Source: Pseudomonadota bacterium (GTDB lineage Bacteria; Bdellovibrionota_B; Oligoflexia; Oligoflexales; CAIYRB01). From it: a DNA stretch of 15,266 nucleotides. The stretch spans positions 1-15,266 of the forward strand of contig JANOTL010000084.1 in the NCBI GenBank assembly GCA_031416315.1, written 5' to 3'. Shown one piece after another: positions 1-10,913 of the stretch. Below the pieces are notes generated by a model. The model saw only the letters and a list, made by a program, of their open reading frames with translations, was not told the origin of the DNA and made no database searches. The position numbers and the translations under genes were made by a program. Position 1 is the first letter of the stretch; every line of letters begins with the position of its first letter.

Positions 1-133
1 CGCCTCCCCCCGGACCCGAAGGGTGGCGTCTGGATCAAGGCAGACGGCCAACAGAACCTCGTTGCCCTTCCCCGACTTGGCCAGCCCGCATCAAGCCGTC
101 CGCAGGACAAAAGCGCGCGCAGCGCCAAACGAC

Positions 134-167
134 AAGCCCCCCCCCTCGATGCGAGGGGGGGGGGCTT
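134..167 (-). terminator. GC-rich hairpin, probable intrinsic terminator of the HAMP gene (possibly bidirectional)
   Basis: AAG-C9-TCG-ATG-CGA-G10-CTT inverted repeat about 30 nt past the minus-strand stop at 197. On the minus strand it is followed by GTCGTTT, a weak U-tract. Confidence 0.6.
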
Positions 168-196
168 CGTCCGGACGAAACCGATGCTGCTAGCGA

Positions 197-715
197 TCAG
201 CTAACTTTCCCGTCGCGAGCCTTATTCAACTCATGCACCGGCCCGCCGCCATGCCGCTGCTCCATCTTCTCCGCCATCGCATTCAACTTGCTCACCAAGT
301 CATGCAATTCGTCTTTGTCGCGGATGCGGCAGCGAAGCTTATAATCGCCGGCGGAAAATTGGTCGACGAACCGCTCGATCGAGACGAGGGGGCCGTAATA
401 ACGATGTGTCAGGCGAATCAGCATCGCCAGCATGACGACCATGAACACGGTGAACATCACGCCGATGCGAATCGCATTGCTGCGAAACACGTCGTTGGTG
501 ACCAGCTCCCACTGGAGCTTCGTGTCGACCACGTTGAAGATGCCCATGACGTGCTGATACTGCTCGACGAAGGCGTTGACGAACATGTAGGCGGAGACGC
601 CTACGAACGCGGCCGAGAGGCCCAAAACGTACAGACCGAATTTGATCTGCTTGAACGGCTCGATCAGCGTGTTCTTCAGATTGCGTTTGTACTTCGGTTT
701 GGACTGGTTCACCAC
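197..715 (-). CDS. Membrane protein with two TM helices and a C-terminal HAMP domain, no output domain (about 172 aa)
   Basis: Hydrophobic segments FGLYVLGLSAAFVGVSAYMFV and IGVMFTVFMVVMLAMLI, then a HAMP signature (GPLVSIERFVDQFSAGDYKLRCRIRDKDELHDLVSKLNAMAEKM). Start moved from 961 to GTG 715 (or 712) because GGAGG lies 7 nt upstream. Confidence 0.85.
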   Translation of the reverse strand: MVNQSKPKYKRNLKNTLIEPFKQIKFGLYVLGLSAAFVGVSAYMFVNAFVEQYQHVMGIFNVVDTKLQWELVTNDVFRSNAIRIGVMFTVFMVVMLAMLIRLTHRYYGPLVSIERFVDQFSAGDYKLRCRIRDKDELHDLVSKLNAMAEKMEQRHGGGPVHELNKARDGKVS

Positions 716-737
716 GGCGCTTCCTCCCATGTGTGGG

Positions 738-764
738 GTTTCGGCGCTCGGTCCCGGAACCTTA
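738..764 (-). promoter_or_regulatory. sigma28 (FliA)-like promoter of the HAMP gene
   Basis: Minus strand reads TAAG-N15-GCCGAAAC against the consensus TAAA-N15-GCCGATAA, directly upstream of the RBS. Confidence 0.55.
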
Positions 765-806
765 GGCGGAAGGCGCCGGTCTCCCCTTGGGCGGCCACGA
801 AAAGGC

Positions 807-835
807 TTGCGCTTGGGCAGGAGCCTCGATAGGTT
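807..835 (+). promoter_or_regulatory. sigma70-like promoter of the small basic ORF
   Basis: TTGCGC(807-812)-N17-TAGGTT(830-835), 36 nt before the GTG at 872. Confidence 0.55.
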
Positions 836-871
836 CCCGCGGTACTCGTTAAAACAGCTTGGAGACCACTC

Positions 872-976
872 GTGCACGGTTCTCGCCACAGACGGAAACA
901 TCCCAAGGGACGCCGCAAGGTCGGCCGTAAGAAACGCCGGATGATGGCCAAGCGCCGCCACTTGCGCACGGTCTGA
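872..976 (+). CDS. 34-aa highly basic small protein MHGSRHRRKHPKGRRKVGRKKRRMMAKRRHLRTV; candidate small ribosomal or RNA-binding protein
   Basis: GGAG RBS 861-864, GTG 872, TGA 974-976. It has 11 Arg, 6 Lys, 4 His and no acidic residue, and is flanked by a promoter and a terminator hairpin. It is shorter than any ORF in the supplied track. Confidence 0.75.
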   Translation: MHGSRHRRKHPKGRRKVGRKKRRMMAKRRHLRTV

Positions 977-994
977 TCGCCCTCGATCGATACC

Positions 995-1028
995 AACAGG
1001 CGACCTGGCTTTGTCCGGGTCGCCTGTT
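995..1028 (+). terminator. Intrinsic terminator-like hairpin after the small ORF
   Basis: AACAGGCGACCTGG-CTTTGT-CCGGGTCGCCTGTT forms a 14-bp stem (one G-U pair) 18 nt after the stop, with an interrupted T-rich tail. Confidence 0.7.
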
Positions 1029-1191
1029 CGTGCTTGTTCGCTCCGAACCGCTCATTCCCGCCGCGATATCCCAGCCTTAGCCTTGCTCCGCCCGCGCCGA
1101 ACTCGGAATTTTCCCAGCATTTTCGCTTGGACACCCGCCCCATATCAGCGGTTTAATTCGAAAAAGATGGGGTACTCCCAAGGCGACGGCA

Positions 1192-1200
1192 TGGTATCCT
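1192..1200 (+). promoter_or_regulatory. Possible extended -10 element
   Basis: TG-G-TATCCT about 60 nt upstream of ATG 1259, with no convincing -35. Confidence 0.25.
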
Positions 1201-1258
1201 TTAGGACAAACTTCCCATCCGAAAAAAGCCCCGAGATTTGCCAAGAAAGGCGCCGCCC

Positions 1259-1951
1259 ATGCTGGATTTCATCTGCGAACTCGAAAGGGTGCTCAGCAAA
1301 TGGCCGGAGAACGCCAGCTGGAACCTCGCCCAAATCGCCGACCATACGGCTACGGGCGTCCCCCAGGTCGTCGACATCCTCTCCGACACCCTGGACCGTG
1401 AGCTCGAGGTCCACGAGGCTCTGACCCGCGCGGAAGCGATCAAGGCTCTCGACATCCTCAAAGACCGGATGTCGGGTCAGCTCCAGGCGCGTCAAAAGCG
1501 CCTCGAGGTCCGTCGTGAGAAAGCGATCCGTGCCTTCGACCTAACGATGGAGAAGGTCCGTGTCCTCCAGGGTGCGAAAAATTGGCGCAGCGCCTACAAA
1601 ACCCTGAGCTACTACGTCGGCCGCCATGAGAAAGACCTTCCGGGCGAGCTCCTCCTCAGCCTCTGCGGCGAGTGCCTGCGTTTGGGCTTCAAAGCCGAGG
1701 CGAACCTCCAGGAGCTCTCGATGTGGCTGCGCAAAGGCGTGGCCGCGAGCCTCTCCTCCGAGACCGCCCACGGCGTCGAGGAAGCCCTCGACTTCATCGA
1801 TGCGTACGGCGAGCTCTTCCAGGAAGAAAGCCAAGCCGCCCCGGGTCGCCGCCTCCTCGGCAGCGTCATGGAAGGCTTGAAGCGCGAGGCCGTAAGCCAT
1901 AACCTGGCGCCCCAGTATGAAGTCCTGGCGAAAGACCTCGGCGTCGGCTGA
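1259..1951 (+). CDS. Hypothetical all-helical protein (230 aa), possible N-terminal HTH and TPR-like C-terminal half
   Basis: AGAAAGG RBS before ATG 1259 and host-like codon use. WNLAQIADHTATGVPQVVDIL resembles an HTH and is followed by a coiled-coil-like segment. Confidence 0.75.
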   Translation: MLDFICELERVLSKWPENASWNLAQIADHTATGVPQVVDILSDTLDRELEVHEALTRAEAIKALDILKDRMSGQLQARQKRLEVRREKAIRAFDLTMEKVRVLQGAKNWRSAYKTLSYYVGRHEKDLPGELLLSLCGECLRLGFKAEANLQELSMWLRKGVAASLSSETAHGVEEALDFIDAYGELFQEESQAAPGRRLLGSVMEGLKREAVSHNLAPQYEVLAKDLGVG

Positions 1952-1987
1952 TTTAGTCCGTCGTCCCGGCTGATAAAGGAACGGGCT

Positions 1988-4537
1988 TTGGCCAAGAAGA
2001 AGAAGTCTGCGCCGCGGGCCGTCTTATCCAACAAGCTTGGAAAACTCCCGCGCGCGCTTCCCGTATCCGCGACCTACAAGCACTGCCCCGACAACGCGTT
2101 CGACTTCAAGGACACGTCGGGGCTGGGCAAGTCGCACGACATCATCTCCCAGGAGCGCGCGGTGCGCGCGATCAACATGGGCCTGGGCATCCGCAAGCCT
2201 GGCTACAACATCTACGTCGCCGGTAGCCAGGGCACCGGCAAGACGAGCGTCATCCGCACCTTCCTCGAAAAGTGGTCGGGCGACGCAGAGACGCCCGTCG
2301 ACTGGCTCTACATCTACGACTTCAACGACACGGAAGCGCCGAAGGCGATCTCGGTCGCGGCCGGCGAAGGCCGGAAGTTCAAAAAGCAGATGGAGACCTT
2401 GGTCAAGAATCTGCGCGAGCAAGTGCCTAAAGCTCTTCAGAGCGAAGACTACGAAAACGCCGTGAACGCCTATGCTTCTGCCTCCAACGAGCGCAAAGCC
2501 AAGCACTACGCCGACCTCGAGAAGCTGGCGAAGTCGATGGACTTCGTCGTCAAGTCGACGCGCATGGGCATCGAGACGATCCCGATCGTGGACGGCCGCG
2601 CCCTGACCGAGAAAGAGTACGGCAAGCTCAACGACAAAGACCGCGAGACGATCGAGGACCACCGCTCGCAGCTCGAGCCGGAAGTCCTCGACTTCGCGCG
2701 CAAAGTGCGCGCGATCGAGTCGGAGACGAGCGAGTACATCGAGGCGCTCCGCGGCGAGCTCGGCAACTCCGTCGTCGGCCAGGAGCTCGATCCCCTCATC
2801 GAGGAATACGAGAAGCGCGATCCTGCGACCCCGCAGCTCGTCGCCTACTTGAAGGAAGTGAAAGAGCACATCCTCGAGAATCTCCTCGATTTCGTCGACC
2901 TGGGCGAGGAGGAAGGCCAGCAGCAATCGCCCTGGGGCGACGAGGAGCGCGACCGGTACGTCAAATACCGGGTCAACGTCTTCGTCGACAATACCAACCA
3001 GAAGGGCGCGCCGGTCATCATTGAGACCAACCCGACCTACTACAACCTGTTCGGCCGCATCGAGAAGAACGTCGAGCACGGCATGTACCTGACCGACTTC
3101 ACGATGATCAAGGCCGGCTCGGTGCACCGCGCCAACGGCGGCTACCTCGTCCTGAACGCCATGGACGTGTTCAAGACGACCTCGGGGATCTGGGACACGC
3201 TGAAGCGCGTGCTCAAGAACCGCCAGGGCTTCATCGAGGACATGGGCGAGCAGTTCTCGCTGCTCCCGACCTCCGGCCTGCGCCCCGTGCCGATCAGCCT
3301 CGACGTCAAAGTCATCATGATCGGCAACGACGACATCTATCACATGCTCCACGACGGCGACGACGACTTCGCCAAGATCTTCAAGATCAAGGCCGACTTC
3401 GACTACAAGATGCCGCGCACCGACGAGACCGAGGAAGCCTACGCGCACTTCGTCTCGACGCGCGCGGAGCTCGAGGATCTCCTGCCTTTCTCCCGCGGCG
3501 GCGTCGCGGCGGTCGTCGAGTTCGGCTCGCGGCTCGTGGAGGACCAGCGCGCGCTGTCGACCCAATTCGGCCAAATCAAGGATCTGACGATCGAAAGCGA
3601 CTACCTCGCGCGCGCCCAGGGCGCCAAAGGGGTCACGCGCGATCACGTCGAACAGGCCTTGGACCAGAAGTTCTTCCGCCACAACCTGGTGGAAGAGCAG
3701 ATGCTCGAGATGGTGCGGCACGAGGACGTCCTCCTCTCCCTCGACGGCGAGCAGGTCGGCCAAGTGAACGGCCTCGCCGTCTACGACATGGGCGACTACT
3801 CGTTCGGCAAGATGGGCCGCATCACCTGCACGATCTCGGTCACCGACGAGGGCGTGCTCAACATCGAGCGCGCCTCGAAGCTCTCCGGCAAGATCCACGA
3901 CAAGGGCGTCTTCATCATGTCGGGCTTCCTCACGGCGGTCTTGGCGAAGAAGAAGAACCTGGGCGTCGCGGCCAGCGTCTGCTTCGAGCAGAGCTACGGC
4001 CTCATCGACGGCGACAGCGCGACCGTGGCTGAGCTCATCTCGATCCTCTCGGCGATGGGCGAGATCCCGGTGAAGCAGGGCTTCGCGATGACCGGCAGCT
4101 TGAACCAATTCGGCGAGGTGCAGCCGGTCGGCGGCATCAACGAGAAGATCGAGGGCTTCTTCAAGACGGCGAAGCTGGTGGGCAAGGGCAATGGCCCATA
4201 TTCCGTGATGATTCCGCATCAAAACGTGCCCAACCTGATGTTGCATCGCGACGTGCGCGCGGCGATCAACGAGGGCTTTTTCCAGGTGATCCCGATCCGC
4301 TCGATCGGCGAGGCCTTCGAGATCGTCACCGGCATGCCGCTCGGCTTCACGAACGTGCTGCAGAACGAGTTCCCCGCGGGCTCGGCGCTGGAGAAGATCG
4401 AGAAGCGCCTGCGCGCCTTGCGTAAGGGCAACGAGGACGAGCACAAAGAGCGGCCGAAAGCGGTCGTCAGCACCTCGAAGACGCCGAAGCAGAAGGTCGC
4501 CAAGCCTCGAGCCGCCAGGCCCCCGCGGCGCAAGTGA
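1988..4537 (+). CDS. Lon-like (LonC/YcbZ-type, peptidase S16) protease with AAA-like domain
   Basis: Walker A GSQGTGKT, NPTYYNLFGRIE, AGSVHRANGGYLVL, catalytic Ser in DGDSAT and Lys in GGINEKIEGF. AAAGGA RBS precedes a TTG start. Confidence 0.93.
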   Translation: MAKKKKSAPRAVLSNKLGKLPRALPVSATYKHCPDNAFDFKDTSGLGKSHDIISQERAVRAINMGLGIRKPGYNIYVAGSQGTGKTSVIRTFLEKWSGDAETPVDWLYIYDFNDTEAPKAISVAAGEGRKFKKQMETLVKNLREQVPKALQSEDYENAVNAYASASNERKAKHYADLEKLAKSMDFVVKSTRMGIETIPIVDGRALTEKEYGKLNDKDRETIEDHRSQLEPEVLDFARKVRAIESETSEYIEALRGELGNSVVGQELDPLIEEYEKRDPATPQLVAYLKEVKEHILENLLDFVDLGEEEGQQQSPWGDEERDRYVKYRVNVFVDNTNQKGAPVIIETNPTYYNLFGRIEKNVEHGMYLTDFTMIKAGSVHRANGGYLVLNAMDVFKTTSGIWDTLKRVLKNRQGFIEDMGEQFSLLPTSGLRPVPISLDVKVIMIGNDDIYHMLHDGDDDFAKIFKIKADFDYKMPRTDETEEAYAHFVSTRAELEDLLPFSRGGVAAVVEFGSRLVEDQRALSTQFGQIKDLTIESDYLARAQGAKGVTRDHVEQALDQKFFRHNLVEEQMLEMVRHEDVLLSLDGEQVGQVNGLAVYDMGDYSFGKMGRITCTISVTDEGVLNIERASKLSGKIHDKGVFIMSGFLTAVLAKKKNLGVAASVCFEQSYGLIDGDSATVAELISILSAMGEIPVKQGFAMTGSLNQFGEVQPVGGINEKIEGFFKTAKLVGKGNGPYSVMIPHQNVPNLMLHRDVRAAINEGFFQVIPIRSIGEAFEIVTGMPLGFTNVLQNEFPAGSALEKIEKRLRALRKGNEDEHKERPKAVVSTSKTPKQKVAKPRAARPPRRK

Positions 4538-4582: not shown

Positions 4583-5578
4583 ATGAGCGTGACGAACGAA
4601 CCACTCGCCGACACACTGAAGTCTCGCGCAAGGCTGAAGGCGGCCGTGCGCGAGTTTTTCTCGGGGACCGGGGCCGGCTACTTGGAGGTCGACACGCCCG
4701 TCGGCGTGATCTGCCCGGGGACTGAGGTGCATCTCGGCTACTTCGAGACCGCGTGGCGCGATCACCAGAAGCGCGAGCACCGGCTGTTCTTGCGCTCGAG
4801 CCCCGAGCTGCACATGAAGCAGGCGCTGGCGGCGCTCGGAGAAGGCGGGATTTTCCAGCTCGCGACCTGCTTCCGCAACGACGGCGAGATCTCGGCCTGG
4901 CACCATCCCGAGTTCACCATGCTCGAGTTCTACGAGACCGGGACCTCCTACCACGATTTCATCGCGCGGACGGAGGCCTTGCTCACTGCGACGCGCGAGG
5001 CCTTCAAGGCGACGAAGGTGCCGAAGACTTTTCGGCGGGTGACGGTGGCGGAGGCCTTCCGCGAGTGGGCCGGGCTCGAGCTGGAAGACGAGGACCCGGA
5101 GCTGGCGCCACGCGGCAAGAGCGCAGGAATCCGATCTTTGCGCGGCGACGAGGACTTCGAGACCGCCTTCTTCAAGATCTTGATCGACCGGATTGAGCCG
5201 GGAATCGAGCGCGAAGGCGCCGTCGTCCTGCACGACTATCCGGCGTCGCAGGCGGCGCTGGCGATGGTCGAAGGCGAGGTCGCGCGGCGATTCGAGTTTT
5301 ACGTCGGGCGGGCGGAGCTCTGTAACGGGTTCCAAGAGCTTCTCGATCCCGCCGCGAACCGCGCCCGGATTCGCGCGGCGATGGCACGGCGGAAGGCGCT
5401 CGGCAGCGTCGTGCCCGACGAGGACGAGGACTTCTACGCGGCCCTCGAAAATGGCCTCAAGCCGTGCTGCGGCAACGCCTTGGGCTTCGAGCGCTGGCTC
5501 GCGCTCCTGCTCGGCCGGGACGGGATCGCGAGCGCGGTGCCCTTTCGCGCGGCGGCGCCTTATCGAGGTCACGAGTGA
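4583..5578 (+). CDS. epmA: EF-P lysine aminoacylase (EpmA/GenX/PoxA), lysyl-tRNA synthetase class II paralog
   Basis: YLEVDTP, LRSSPELHMKQALA, IFQLATCFRNDGE..HHPEFTMLEFY, RFEFYVGRAELCNGFQEL and GNALGFERWL. At 331 aa it lacks an anticodon-binding domain. Confidence 0.92.
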   Translation: MSVTNEPLADTLKSRARLKAAVREFFSGTGAGYLEVDTPVGVICPGTEVHLGYFETAWRDHQKREHRLFLRSSPELHMKQALAALGEGGIFQLATCFRNDGEISAWHHPEFTMLEFYETGTSYHDFIARTEALLTATREAFKATKVPKTFRRVTVAEAFREWAGLELEDEDPELAPRGKSAGIRSLRGDEDFETAFFKILIDRIEPGIEREGAVVLHDYPASQAALAMVEGEVARRFEFYVGRAELCNGFQELLDPAANRARIRAAMARRKALGSVVPDEDEDFYAALENGLKPCCGNALGFERWLALLLGRDGIASAVPFRAAAPYRGHE

Positions 5579-6548: not shown

Positions 6549-6564
6549 TGGCACGGTGCCTGCA
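6549..6564 (+). promoter_or_regulatory. sigma54 (RpoN) -24/-12 promoter of the lipoprotein gene
   Basis: TGGCACG-GTGC-CTGCA against the consensus TGGCACG-N4-TTGCW, with exact GG-N10-GC spacing, 36 nt before the ATG. Confidence 0.65.
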
Positions 6565-6600
6565 TTGGGCTCTCCGCGAATGACACGAGGAGGAACTATC

Positions 6601-7272
6601 ATGCGCAGAGCCACGCTCACCATCTTGACGCCCTTGATTGCCGGTGTGTTTACCTACGGTTGCACGAAATCGCCGGAAGAGAAGCGCGCTGAGGCCCAGA
6701 AAGAAGCGGCCGAAGACATCGCGGACGCCCAAAAGAAGGTCGCCGACGCCAACGTCGAGGCCAAAAAGGATATCGCCGAAGTCCAAGCGGAAGCCCGCAA
6801 AGACGTCGCCGAGGTCAATTCCGAGGTTCGCGAGGACGTCGCGGACGCCCAGAAAGACGTCGCCGAGACCCGCGCCGAGGCGAACAAAGAGATCGTCGAA
6901 GCCCAGACCGAGGCGTCCAAAGAGGTCGCCGAGATCAATCGTGATGCAGCCACCGACCGTCCCGTGACCGACGCCAACGCGTTCGTGACGACGCGCGACA
7001 CCTTCGTCACCACGGCCCAGACCCGCGTCCAGACCAGCCGTGACTCGATCGACCGCCTGGAAAAGGCGGCGAACGACAAGGCCGCGATGAACACGGTCTC
7101 GCCCGTTCTGGCCGACACGCGCACCAAGCTCACCGCCGCGGAGTCGCAGCTCCAAAACGTCAAAAACGCCACGCAAGATCAGTGGGCGAGCTTGAAAACC
7201 AACATGGAGACCAAGCTCACCGAGCTGGAAGCCTCCATCAGCACTCTCGAGCAGCAAGTCTCGGCGCACTAA
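6601..7272 (+). CDS. Lipoprotein with amphipathic helical 11/7-residue repeats (223 aa)
   Basis: GGAGGA RBS before ATG 6601. Signal MRRATLTILTPLIAGVFTYG-C has a lipobox-like TYGC, followed by EAxKDVAE-type repeats and a helical C-terminal domain. Confidence 0.85.
   Translation: MRRATLTILTPLIAGVFTYGCTKSPEEKRAEAQKEAAEDIADAQKKVADANVEAKKDIAEVQAEARKDVAEVNSEVREDVADAQKDVAETRAEANKEIVEAQTEASKEVAEINRDAATDRPVTDANAFVTTRDTFVTTAQTRVQTSRDSIDRLEKAANDKAAMNTVSPVLADTRTKLTAAESQLQNVKNATQDQWASLKTNMETKLTELEASISTLEQQVSAH
6694..6933 (+). repeat. Two diverged tandem 120-bp (40-aa; 11+7+11+11) coding repeats
   Basis: AQKEAAEDIAD-AQKKVAD-ANVEAKKDIAE-VQAEARKDVAE followed by VNSEVREDVAD-AQKDVAE-TRAEANKEIVE-AQTEASKEVAE. 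Confidence 0.75.
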
Positions 7273-7363: not shown

Positions 7364-7396
7364 GACGTTCCCGCGCCTTTGAGACCAAATCGCGGG

Positions 7397-8134
7397 ATGC
7401 CTCTCGCCGCGATCAGCGCCTGCCGCCGGCTGCCCGCCTCCCTAAACGACGGGGAGCGGCGCACGATGTTCGCCTTGTTCTCGCGCTATTACCGGGATGT
7501 CGCGTTCGAGACCTTCTCGAGCGATCTGAGCGAGAAGGACGTCGTCTGGGTGTTCGCGCAGCGCGGCGCCGTCGTCGGCTTCACGACGCTCCTCGTCCGA
7601 GAGAGCGAGCGCGAGGCGCTCCTCTACTCGGGCGACACCGTGCTCGAACGCGAGCTGTGGGGTTCGAAGCTCTTGCAGCGCGCGTTCCTGCGGGAGATCG
7701 TCCGCGTCAAGCTGCGGAGGCCCTGGCGGCCGGCATATTGGCTCCTGATGAGCAAGGGGGAGCGCACGTACCTCATGATGCGGCGCAACTTTCCCGTGTC
7801 CTATCCGCGCGCGGGGGCCACGGCGCCGTCGCGCCTGGCGCGCGTCATGGATGCCTTCTATGCACAGAAATTCGGCGCGGCGTACGACCCCGAGCGCGGA
7901 CTCGTGCGTTTCGGCGAGCGCCGGGGCGCGGTGCGAGAAGAGCACCTCGCCGCGCAGGCTGCGCAAAGGGAAGGCGGCGATGCCGAGGCGGCGTTTTTCC
8001 TGAAGCGCAATCCCGAGCATGCCGACGGGGTCGAGCTTGCCTGCATCGCGGAGCTGCGGCTGCGCGACGTGCCCTGGCAAATGAAGAAATTTCGGCGGCC
8101 GGCGCCGTCGCGGGAGATCGTCCTTGAAGTTTGA
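7397..8134 (+). CDS. Hypothetical protein, probable GNAT-like acyltransferase fold
   Basis: MFALFSRYY..FSSDLSEKD..VVGFTT..YSGDTVLERELWGSKLL resembles a GNAT beta4/acyl-CoA loop, then YWLLMSKGERTY and FFLKRNP..GVELACI. The start is uncertain (7379 TTG or 7397 ATG). Confidence 0.65.
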   Translation: MPLAAISACRRLPASLNDGERRTMFALFSRYYRDVAFETFSSDLSEKDVVWVFAQRGAVVGFTTLLVRESEREALLYSGDTVLERELWGSKLLQRAFLREIVRVKLRRPWRPAYWLLMSKGERTYLMMRRNFPVSYPRAGATAPSRLARVMDAFYAQKFGAAYDPERGLVRFGERRGAVREEHLAAQAAQREGGDAEAAFFLKRNPEHADGVELACIAELRLRDVPWQMKKFRRPAPSREIVLEV

Positions 8135-10913
8135 TCGCGTGCCGACGCGCCGAGATCCGCGCTGGCGTTTTTTGGCGCTTCTGGCGAGCTACGTCGTCTT
8201 CGGGATCACCTTTCTCGGCTTTAACCGCAGCCCCTTGCAGATCCTCATGGTCGTCTCGGCGACGTGCGGCCTCGACATGCTGTTCCATCACGTCGCGCGC
8301 GGGCGCAAGGACAGGACTGTGCTCTTCCCGCTGAGCTCGATGATCAGCGGCTTCGGGCTCGGAATTCTGGTGAACTACGCGCACGGGCCCTGGCTCTTGT
8401 TCGTGCCGGTCTTCTTCTCGGTGGCGTCGAAATACGTCCTGACCTTCAAAGGACGGCACGTCTTCAATCCGACTCTGATCGGCGTGACCCTCAGTCTCTT
8501 GCTCGGCGAGGGCATGATCAGCGCGTCGCCGAGCTATCAGTGGGGGGGGTCGCTGGCGATCTGCTTCTTCATCGTCGGCGCGGCGCTCTCGCTCTTCATC
8601 CGCGAGGTACGGCGCGTGCCGTTGACCCTGGCGTTCCTCGGGTTCTATTTCGTCGGGCTCGCGATCCGCGCCTACGTCATCCGTTATCACGTGCCGACGG
8701 AGACCTTGTTCTTGGGCGCGTTGACGGCCCCGGCGTTCTTCCTATTCACGTATTTCATGCTCACGGATCCGAAGACCTCGCCGCCGACGGCGCGAGGGCA
8801 GGTGCTCATGGCGTTCGTGATCGTCGGCCTCGACCTTTGGCTGCACAAGATGCACCGGCTTTCGACTTTGTTCCTTGCGGGATCGATGTACTTCGCCGGG
8901 CGCTTCGTCTGGCTCCACGTCGCAGAGCTGGTGAAAGATCCGCGGGGTGTCGGCCCGCGGCTTTCGCGATGGGCCCCTCGGCCGCTCACGGCGGCGGCGA
9001 TCGCGGCGCTCGGGCTGGTCGTGCACGCCGGGTTCATCCGGCCGAAACAAGACGCCGAGGCGCACGTGGCGATGACCGCGCAGGCGGCCGACGCGGTCGG
9101 GATCGCGGCCCGACCGAGCGACGCTCTGAGCCTCGTCGACCCGCGGATCGCGCATGTGGCGAAGTGGCTCCTCTCAATCGGCGACGCCGTGGCCTCGGCG
9201 GACGTCGACCTCGACGGGAGACAAGATCTCTTCTTCACCCTGCCCTTGAAGCAGGCCGAGGACCGCGGCGCGCTGTACCTAAACCGCGGCCACTTCAAGT
9301 TCGAGCGCGTCGAGATTCCTGAGCTCGCCCTCTTGGTCGCCGAGCCAAGGACGCACGGGTTTCCGGCCGGCGCCGTGTTCTTCGATGCCGACAACGACGG
9401 CGACCAGGATCTGCTCGTGCTCTTCGCCTGGGGAGAGTCGCGGCTTTTTCGCAACCGGCTGCTCGAGGACGGCAAGCTGAGCTTCGCCGCCGAGTCGGGG
9501 CCGTCGGCGCTTCGCGATTACACGGTGAGCGTCGCGGCGACGGTCGTCGACCTGAACCGCGACGGCAAGCTCGACGTGTTCCTCGCGAACGTCCTGCCGA
9601 CGACCTTGCCGGCGTACGACCAGCCGACGCGTTTCGACATCTTCCGGCTGCCGCAGCCTGCGCACGAGGGCGACCGGCGGATGTTCGACTTCATGCATCG
9701 GACCTGGTACGACGCGGCGAACGGCGGCGACAAGTGGATCTACATGAACGAGGGCGCAAGTTTCGCGCGGCAGAAGGCCGCAGAGCGCGAAACCTTCGGC
9801 ACGCGGTGGACTTTGGCGGTCGGCGCGGCGGATCTCAATCGCGACGGCAGCCCGGAGCTTTATCTGGCGAACGATTTTGGGCCCGATCAGCTGTTCCAGA
9901 ACGACGGGAAAGGCCGCTTTGCGGCCGTACGCGGCAGCTTCATCGGCGAGATGGGGCGCGACACGTACAAGGGCATGAACGTCTCGATCGGTGACGTCGA
10001 CGGCAACGGCCACCAGGACCTCTACGTCTCTAACGTGCACAAGCCGCTCCAGGCGGAAGGCAGCCTCTTGTGGATGAACGACGGCACCATGGCGACCGCG
10101 GGCGCCGCCGCTTTCACGGACCGAGCATCCGGGCGGAATGCGCTGAACGAGCGGCGCTTCGGTTGGGGCGCGGCGATGGGTGACCTAGACCTCGACGGCA
10201 AGCTCGACTTGGCGCAGGCCAATGGCATGGTGAACGACCGGTACGATCGCACGGCGGCCGAGGGCCAGCCTTGCGACGATTACTGGTACTACGCCGAAAA
10301 GGTGGCGCTGACGAACCCCGACGTGCACGGCTTCGCCGACCGCTGGGCCGATCTGCGCGGGCGCTGCATCTTCCCGGCCGACGCGAATCGGCTGTATTTG
10401 AACCGAGACCGCTACTTCGTCGACGTCGCGGCGAGCGTGGGCTTCGATCTGCCGAAGGACGCGCAGGGGAAGCCGAGCGGGCCGTCGCGCGCCGTGGCGA
10501 TGGTCGATCTCGACGAGGACGGCGACCTCGACCTCGTGGTCACGCATCAATTCTCGGGGCCGAGCTTCTTCGAGAACGGCACGGCGCAGGCGGACGGGCC
10601 GCACTGGGTGGGGCTGGCGCTGGAGGGCGACGGCAGGCGCTGCAATCGCGACGCGATCGGCACGGTCGCGCGGGTGCAGGACGGCGCGTATCCGGAGCAG
10701 ATGCGCGAGGTGCAGGCGGTTTCCGGATTTTCGGCGCAGGGTGATCGCCGCATCCTTTTCGGCCTTGGCGGGAAAGGCGGCGCGAGCCGGGAGGTCGCGG
10801 TGCGCGTGAAGTGGTGCGGCGACGGACCCGAGCAGGCGCTCTTGCTGCCTACGCGTCAGTATCATCGGATTCGCCAGCCGCGCGTCTCCGAGCCGATGGC
10901 GGGCACGCCATGA
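8124..10913 (+). CDS. Fusion of an UnbU/RnfD(NqrB)-like polytopic membrane domain with an FG-GAP beta-propeller and ASPIC/UnbV (CRTAC1-like) domain
   Basis: The first ~300 aa are multi-TM with GRHVFNP and FMLTDPKTSP. Seven DxD/NxDG-type motifs follow, then HWVGLALEG..NRDAIG..QMREV..SGFSAQGDRRILFGLG..VRVKW. GGGAG RBS precedes TTG 8124. Confidence 0.88.
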   Translation: MKFDRVPTRRDPRWRFLALLASYVVFGITFLGFNRSPLQILMVVSATCGLDMLFHHVARGRKDRTVLFPLSSMISGFGLGILVNYAHGPWLLFVPVFFSVASKYVLTFKGRHVFNPTLIGVTLSLLLGEGMISASPSYQWGGSLAICFFIVGAALSLFIREVRRVPLTLAFLGFYFVGLAIRAYVIRYHVPTETLFLGALTAPAFFLFTYFMLTDPKTSPPTARGQVLMAFVIVGLDLWLHKMHRLSTLFLAGSMYFAGRFVWLHVAELVKDPRGVGPRLSRWAPRPLTAAAIAALGLVVHAGFIRPKQDAEAHVAMTAQAADAVGIAARPSDALSLVDPRIAHVAKWLLSIGDAVASADVDLDGRQDLFFTLPLKQAEDRGALYLNRGHFKFERVEIPELALLVAEPRTHGFPAGAVFFDADNDGDQDLLVLFAWGESRLFRNRLLEDGKLSFAAESGPSALRDYTVSVAATVVDLNRDGKLDVFLANVLPTTLPAYDQPTRFDIFRLPQPAHEGDRRMFDFMHRTWYDAANGGDKWIYMNEGASFARQKAAERETFGTRWTLAVGAADLNRDGSPELYLANDFGPDQLFQNDGKGRFAAVRGSFIGEMGRDTYKGMNVSIGDVDGNGHQDLYVSNVHKPLQAEGSLLWMNDGTMATAGAAAFTDRASGRNALNERRFGWGAAMGDLDLDGKLDLAQANGMVNDRYDRTAAEGQPCDDYWYYAEKVALTNPDVHGFADRWADLRGRCIFPADANRLYLNRDRYFVDVAASVGFDLPKDAQGKPSGPSRAVAMVDLDEDGDLDLVVTHQFSGPSFFENGTAQADGPHWVGLALEGDGRRCNRDAIGTVARVQDGAYPEQMREVQAVSGFSAQGDRRILFGLGGKGGASREVAVRVKWCGDGPEQALLLPTRQYHRIRQPRVSEPMAGTP

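Follow-up and report, generated by a model that had tools for sequence, protein, structure and literature searches.

The ribosomal peptides bS22, mS38 and eL41 occupy one common pocket beside the decoding centre, and to our knowledge most bacteria appear to have no occupant of this pocket. The position of bS22 has been described as h44/h45 and H70 (PMC12123416), and in M. smegmatis, where bS22 is reported to be non-essential, its Lys16 contacts h44 (PMC10081302). Borrelia bS22 was reported as an unannotated protein with a GUG start and 61% K/R, in an account that finds only 19% identical residues among three aligned bS22 and predicts that others remain, concealed by their brevity and non-AUG starts (PMC10618245). 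Elsewhere, a conserved histidine in the N-terminal tail of eS30 is described as stabilising codon-anticodon pairing in eukaryotes (PMC11698992), and 14 viral ribosomal proteins have been reported in a paper whose main text contains no occurrence of bS22 or mS38 (PMC6375957).

We analysed a stretch of 15,266 nucleotides (the window, G000:C84:1-15266, G000 being the label of its source genome) and describe in it a gene, at positions 872-976, for a hyper-basic protein that most likely works like bS22 and is a candidate member of bS22 itself. A literature search that included the core motifs of this protein, with most subscription papers and supplements outside its scope, found no paper on the family.

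A conserved, unannotated microprotein gene

The gene lies on the plus strand (872..976), opens with GTG and ends with TGA, and is preceded by the Shine-Dalgarno word GGAG (861..864, plus strand), 7 nt 5' of the start. Translation of the window gives a product of 34 residues, of which 50% are R or K and none D or E, with a core of K12-G-R-R-K-V-G-R-K-K-R22 and a predicted helix over residues 19-33. This unit had been proposed by an earlier, sequence-only reading of the window, and its start, stop, ribosome-binding word and composition all proved correct in place. Across the whole of genome G000, a similar composition filter was passed by 6 of 10,272 short ORF starts preceded by a ribosome-binding site.

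The flanking signals differ in strength. The stem of 14 bp that the sequence-only reading had offered as a terminator was recovered by a terminator scan and by folding (995..1028, plus strand; -31.8 kcal/mol, z -5.67, with 0/200 shuffles equally stable), and it is probably an intrinsic terminator, its U-tail being imperfect; in 45/59 relatives the 70 nt 3' of the gene beat their shuffles by 3 kcal/mol or more in folding energy. The promoter put forward in the same reading, TTGCGC-N17-TAGGTT, is present on the plus strand at 807..835 but is weak, matching 6/12 consensus bases (3/6 + 3/6), and a promoter scan of the window called no promoters, this site included. Among the relatives, TTG[CA] occurs 45-80 nt 5' of the gene in 41/59 loci vs 24-29/59 in three control windows, an enrichment that lends the promoter mild support. 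Moreover, an SD-like word precedes the start in 57/59 orthologous loci, and we infer that the gene is expressed as its own short, monocistronic transcript.

Conservation of the gene is pervasive. One strong copy was found in 61/61 relatives, at 75-97% identity, with second matches appearing only at E >= 0.011, and one copy per genome was found in 99/104 genomes of the phylum (79/83 of high quality), whose record titles are those of Oligoflexia (Oligoflexales, Silvanigrellales). The dN/dS comparison suggested in the sequence-only reading, carried out between the window and its relatives over 59 loci, gave saturated synonymous sites (mean pS about 0.87) vs a mean pN of about 0.13 (0.14 when the misframed row L040 is included), and a genome of the same genus encodes an identical protein despite 16 synonymous changes. 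Orthologues are 33-36 aa long, 18/34 positions are invariant among 40 sequences, and of 59 copies 28 start with GTG, 24 with TTG and 7 with ATG, such that 52/59 use GTG or TTG. Longer overlapping ORFs (642-944 on the plus strand; 709-1143, 849-1055 and a 5' extension of 197-961 on the minus strand) were rejected because conservation tracks the 872 frame and the flanks diverge outside it. By copy retention and protein-level conservation the ORF is far beyond chance: it is a real, unannotated and strongly conserved protein gene, which bears out the earlier suggestion of a basic microprotein missed by annotation.

The family is almost invisible to annotation. Protein databases returned 7 matches among 1.84 billion representatives, all unnamed or hypothetical and 5/7 of them with false N-terminal extensions; one annotated copy is a hypothetical protein of Spirobacillus cienkowskii.

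The genomic neighbourhood is conserved over a shorter range than the gene, with synteny kept within the order and lost outside it. Upstream and divergent lies a gene for a membrane protein with a HAMP-like domain (197..730, minus strand, start approximate; PF00672 at E 0.005, below the cut-off), whose cluster is found in 40/59 loci, two shadow frames being part of this figure. Downstream are a conserved hypothetical gene of 237 aa (1238..1951, plus strand), present 3' in 47/59 loci, then a LonB-like gene (1988-4537) and an EpmA-like gene (4583-5578), both named by family scan. No ribosomal-protein operon surrounds the gene on its own strand in 21 loci, and Rfam gave no match at gathering score over window positions 1-2100. 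In one locus (L049:266-1147) the family gene is convergent with a uL13-uS9 pair on the other strand, named by inspection, and several Silvanigrellales-type loci are arranged alike.

Other features of the window and its genome were recorded in passing. A hairpin of 12 bp (C9/G9) with a T-tail at 137-163, following the HAMP gene, resembles a minus-strand terminator; at 6556-7272 a lipoprotein-like ORF of 238 aa carries repeated acidic KD/EA-rich units and has no family match above cut-off; and at 7379-10913 an ORF of 251 aa with no Pfam match overlaps a 929-aa RnfD-like / FG-GAP / ASPIC-UnbV fusion. Genome G000 also encodes a second unnamed basic microprotein (G000:C223:16456-16572, plus strand; locus L425:1501-1620) of 39 aa and 54% K+R, with GGAG before its ATG, which was matched in 3/4 other genomes tested (L426, L427 and L428, at 84%, 67% and 45% identity); it has no bS22-like motif and may be another peptide of the ribosome, or another RNA binder, that annotation has overlooked.

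Related peptides in other bacteria and in phages

The sequence-only reading had called the protein lineage-specific, a description that is too narrow because the core motif K-G-R-R-K-[VI]-G-[SR]-K-K-R-R is common to peptides of 26-43 aa from Bacteriovoracaceae, from records labelled Planctomycetota and from many phage contigs. Close homologues are patchy among genomes titled Bacteriovoracaceae (11/121 in the class, 10/101 in the order), and one was found on a metagenome contig of 72% GC that looks myxobacterial. An iterated protein search gave 150 matches at E <= 10, most of them individually weak; among the best 120 of 150, peptides clustered at 29-33 aa with a shared core and varied N-termini, and two records were labelled Planctomycetota. 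The window protein aligns to the Planctomycete types at z 7.0-7.8 and to the viral types at z 3.8-6.0, and phage forms starting MGS[VI]LKKK align to it gap-free, at z 5.1-6.0.

Pattern scans of IMG/VR yielded overlapping sets of 72 and at least 120 matches, and 176 loci with a short stand-alone ORF, encoding 95 distinct proteins. Since these proteins were selected by the core pattern, the invariance of the core among them holds by construction; their short lengths, their stops and the SD-like words before them (58/95) do not. A terminase was found in 5/5 large viral records tested, and the neighbours of the gene look, by inspection, like phage genes for replication, tRNA and auxiliary-type functions. 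Four of 72 metagenome pattern matches lay outside the family and were discarded, and a first viral pattern gave 2 matches, of which the one inspected was a chance match. Among GenBank phages, a blastn search with one phage locus found no match, and neither did tblastn with 4 queries, a result made uninformative by the low-complexity filter.

What such a peptide binds can be narrowed from its composition and constraint. Median values for the family are 32 aa, about 53% K+R and 0.5% D/E, a composition which, together with the frequency of the gene in phages, would suit a non-specific, protamine-like peptide that condenses DNA in the nucleoid or the phage capsid, the alternative named in the sequence-only reading. 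Non-specific charge neutralisers tolerate K/R exchange. We consider this function very unlikely, because single residues are invariant, particular K, R, G and H residues having stayed unchanged at saturated synonymous divergence; moreover, the phage copies sit beside the replication, tRNA and auxiliary-type genes described above. Single copy number, class-wide retention, a length of about 30 residues, a K/R content above 50% and fixed residues point instead, taken together, to a peptide buried in a pocket of conserved RNA.

An invariant basic core would suit any conserved RNA pocket, and several phage copies lie next to RNA genes, either 8-20 nt away from tRNA genes or 12 nt ahead of a same-strand tmRNA gene, so that tmRNA, tRNA, RNase P or 6S RNA might be the partner in place of rRNA. 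An RNA gene was present in 11/60 phage loci and, after dereplication, a tRNA or tmRNA gene in 14/79, in 8 of them within 150 nt, counts for which no background was computed and in which 4/8 close cases belong to one phage group. The remaining 65/79 phage loci held no RNA gene in the DNA fetched, there was no Rfam match at gathering score near the bacterial gene, and an RNA of this kind would leave the mutual exclusion with bS22, described below, unexplained; we therefore judge it a quite unlikely partner. Two of these arrangements are of interest in themselves. In a complete 328-kb phage (G388; L332:1474-1896) the family gene stands 12 nt before a permuted tmRNA, on the same strand; bS21 is encoded elsewhere in the same genome (1/5 tested). 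In one phage group (L239:1378-1661, with L229, L245, L282, L283 and L294) it is flanked by tRNA-Leu(taa) and tRNA-Gly(tcc), with gaps of 12-20 nt on either side.

Sequence, structure and distribution compared with bS22

In size and composition the window protein and the median values of the family fall within the range of bS22 (about 29-34 aa, more than 45% K/R and almost no acidic residues). Profile comparison with bS22, as suggested in the sequence-only reading, did not demonstrate homology: hhalign of the family against canonical bS22 gave probabilities of 0.5% and 1.0%, a composition-corrected PSSM test was not significant for 5/5 canonical bS22, and in a shuffle test the window protein reached z <= 0.7 against all 7 bS22. 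The phage forms starting MGS[VI]LKKK scored z 1.9-4.4 against the five canonical bS22, and Bacteroidota-type against canonical bS22 scored similarly, at z 2.4-4.8; since bL35, an unrelated control, reached z 4.3-4.5 against Bacteroidota-type bS22, values near 4 are within noise. Planctomycete forms against the Bacteroidota type gave z 2.0 for one form and 0.5-0.9 for the other.

These sequence tests are low in power, because the canonical models miss known members: a canonical bS22 profile failed to retrieve the Bacteroidota and Borrelia bS22 from the PDB, and PF08213 and NF047430 also miss the Bacteroidota type. For the same reason, the lack of a match to these two models excludes only the actinobacterial subtype. 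Pfam and NCBIfam gave no match for the window protein, for 40 close members or for 54 broad members, PHROGs gave none for the window protein, and the comparison with bTHX and bL37 that had also been suggested, here extended to eL41, found no Pfam or NCBIfam match for the 54 members. A motif over bS22 positions 11-17, written after the sequences had been inspected and with shuffle rates of 0.5-3%, was present in 7/7 retrieved bS22 (4 strict), in 166/184 family members and in 0/6 controls; its register, which is inferred, puts a 98%-conserved lysine of the family on Lys16 of bS22.

The AlphaFold model of the window protein (pLDDT 79.6, pTM 0.38) shows a short turn, an extended N-terminal half and, after Gly18, a helix over residues 19-33. 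Foldseek with this model found no match, a search that is uninformative for one short helix. Searches of PDB sequences with family profiles A1 and A3 gave no match, and an 11-residue match of profile A5 to uL3 (E 0.34) was taken as chance. Two groups of bS22 loci were noted along the way. L199 and L200 (G156 and G149) encode canonical bS22 of a divergent subtype, the middle of which is much like the family helix, a possible intermediate. L217-L222 carry Bacteroidota-type bS22, with no NCBIfam model match, on IMG/VR contigs between genes that by inspection are HU-like and RNase E/G-like, neighbours that make these contigs probably host flanks.

Searched singly, the window protein matched only eS30 in the PDB, at E 3.6-6, and among 13 targets it scored best against eukaryote-type eS30, at z 4.9. 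Its HGS word at the start recurs in retrieved eS30 sequences, and the N-tail histidine of eS30 is reported to be functional at decoding in eukaryotes (PMC11698992), which raises the idea of a compact bacterial counterpart of eS30 reaching the decoding site with its N-terminal His. This match was chosen post hoc, the family profiles retrieved no PDB eS30, the gene has no PF04758 match, and archaeal-type eS30 gave z <= 1.4. Furthermore, His2 is replaced by Asn in 4/58 correctly framed orthologues and is absent from the Bacteriovoracaceae, Planctomycete and phage forms, and we hold an eS30 counterpart to be highly improbable, the least probable reading considered here.

It is the phyletic pattern that selects bS22 among the RNA-binding readings. 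Over the phylum, PF08213 exceeded its cut-off in 3/104 genomes, and NF047430, run over 131, matched those three. No family other than that of G061 and G062 (2/2 genomes) lacks the 872-976 gene, also when sought with the broad profile, and these two genomes carry canonical bS22, with a GTG start there too. Conversely, 98/99 carriers have no PF08213 match over cut-off. The exception, G017 (8% contamination), has both genes, its bS22 lying on a short contig beside a gene unmatched across the remaining 103 genomes, and this contig is a probable contaminant. G066, G071 and G112 have neither the family gene nor canonical bS22. Among 201 genomes around G113, 5 have the family, 2 have PF08213 over cut-off and 0 have both, most having neither; the share with neither gene around G113 is put at about 90%. 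Bacteroidota-type bS22 was not found in 5/5 carriers, by a search that had no positive control. The distribution is thus complementary to that of canonical bS22, a suggestive pattern drawn from few independent lineages, namely two related genomes and two in another group.

The product might also be a novel ribosomal peptide without kinship to bS22 that sits elsewhere on rRNA, as bTHX and bL37 do, which would account for the conservation, size and charge and for the lack of significant bS22 similarity. In addition, the Atlas neighbours of the family, all below 0.9 (0.85-0.89), include L41, COX24_C and HR_L37 clusters alike. A peptide of this sort would, on the other hand, leave unexplained both the presence of bS22 in the non-carrier family and its absence in carriers, and we regard it as unlikely. 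With moderate confidence, we read the 872-976 product as a third sequence type of bS22 and predict that it occupies the 16S h44/h45 pocket. Besides the distribution, we count for this reading the housekeeping-like conservation, the phage forms starting MGS[VI]LKKK, the motif over positions 11-17, the tRNA and tmRNA genes beside some phage copies and the bS21 gene of the 328-kb phage; against it stand the profile and shuffle results and the lack of a ribosomal-protein operon around the gene. The sequence-only reading had proposed a ribosomal role and noted a loose, unreliable resemblance to bS22-type peptides; a ribosomal, bS22-type role is the reading best supported, and direct homology to bS22 was not demonstrated.

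Proposed role and comparison with described systems

As a bS22-like protein, the product would be a small-subunit ribosomal peptide and a functional counterpart of mS38 and eL41. Its basic N-terminal half, in extended form, together with the helix over residues 19-33, kinked at the invariant Gly18, would enter the pocket formed by 16S h27/h44/h45 near the decoding site. There the K21/R22 pair would touch the backbone of h44, a contact made by Lys16 in mycobacterial bS22; the C-terminal helix may extend to 23S rRNA and form a subunit bridge. Translation would be tuned rather than enabled, as with bS22, and phage versions may supply this peptide to the ribosomes of the host or replace it there, a behaviour reported for bS21.

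More tentatively, the GRRK[VI]G[SR]KKR peptides as a whole may be an undescribed third class of bS22, one that takes the place of the canonical protein in Oligoflexia and further lineages and is widespread in aquatic phages, a broader proposal that we consider possible. If true, a common and overlooked virus-encoded ribosomal protein would sit beside the decoding centre of the host, and phage copies that did enter the ribosomes of the host would form a new entry among virus-encoded ribosomal proteins. The family fits the published prediction of hidden bS22 members (PMC10618245), and the proposal is testable in cultured Oligoflexia.

Compared with actinobacterial bS22 (PF08213 COX24_C, NF047430; mS38 in mitochondria), the family shares a length of about 30 aa, more than 50% K/R, a stand-alone gene and GTG starts; some of its phage members likewise begin MGS[VI]LKK, the motif of the Lys16 region aligns, and canonical bS22 occurs where the family is missing. 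Unlike it, the family has no HMM or profile match, and the window protein has a Gly-containing GRRKVG core and 4 extra residues before the aligned motif. The bS22 of Bacteroidota and Borrelia, as described in the two reports on them (PMC10618245, PMC12123416), is likewise unannotated or 'hypothetical', 29-31 aa long and missed by PF08213 and NF047430, and its RH-K tail is similar to that of the Planctomycete-type members; size, charge, GUG start and missed annotation match what is reported for Borrelia bS22 (PMC10618245), a resemblance that we count for the bS22 reading. In contrast, the window protein scores z 0.1-0.2 against two retrieved Bacteroidota-type copies, and in the family the stretch from the conserved Val to the RH tail is shorter by a single residue. 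The likeness to eS30 (PF04758), an HGS-type start followed by a K-x-G-R-x-K-R-R-M helix, is seen in the window protein and is not family-wide, and eS30 is about 60 aa long and found in archaea and eukaryotes only. Finally, like the phage-encoded bS21 and bL12 (PMC6375957), these are small proteins of aquatic phages, and one carrier of the family has bS21; for the phage bS21 and bL12, incorporation into ribosomes is reported as demonstrated (PMC6375957); for the 872-976 family it is a prediction.
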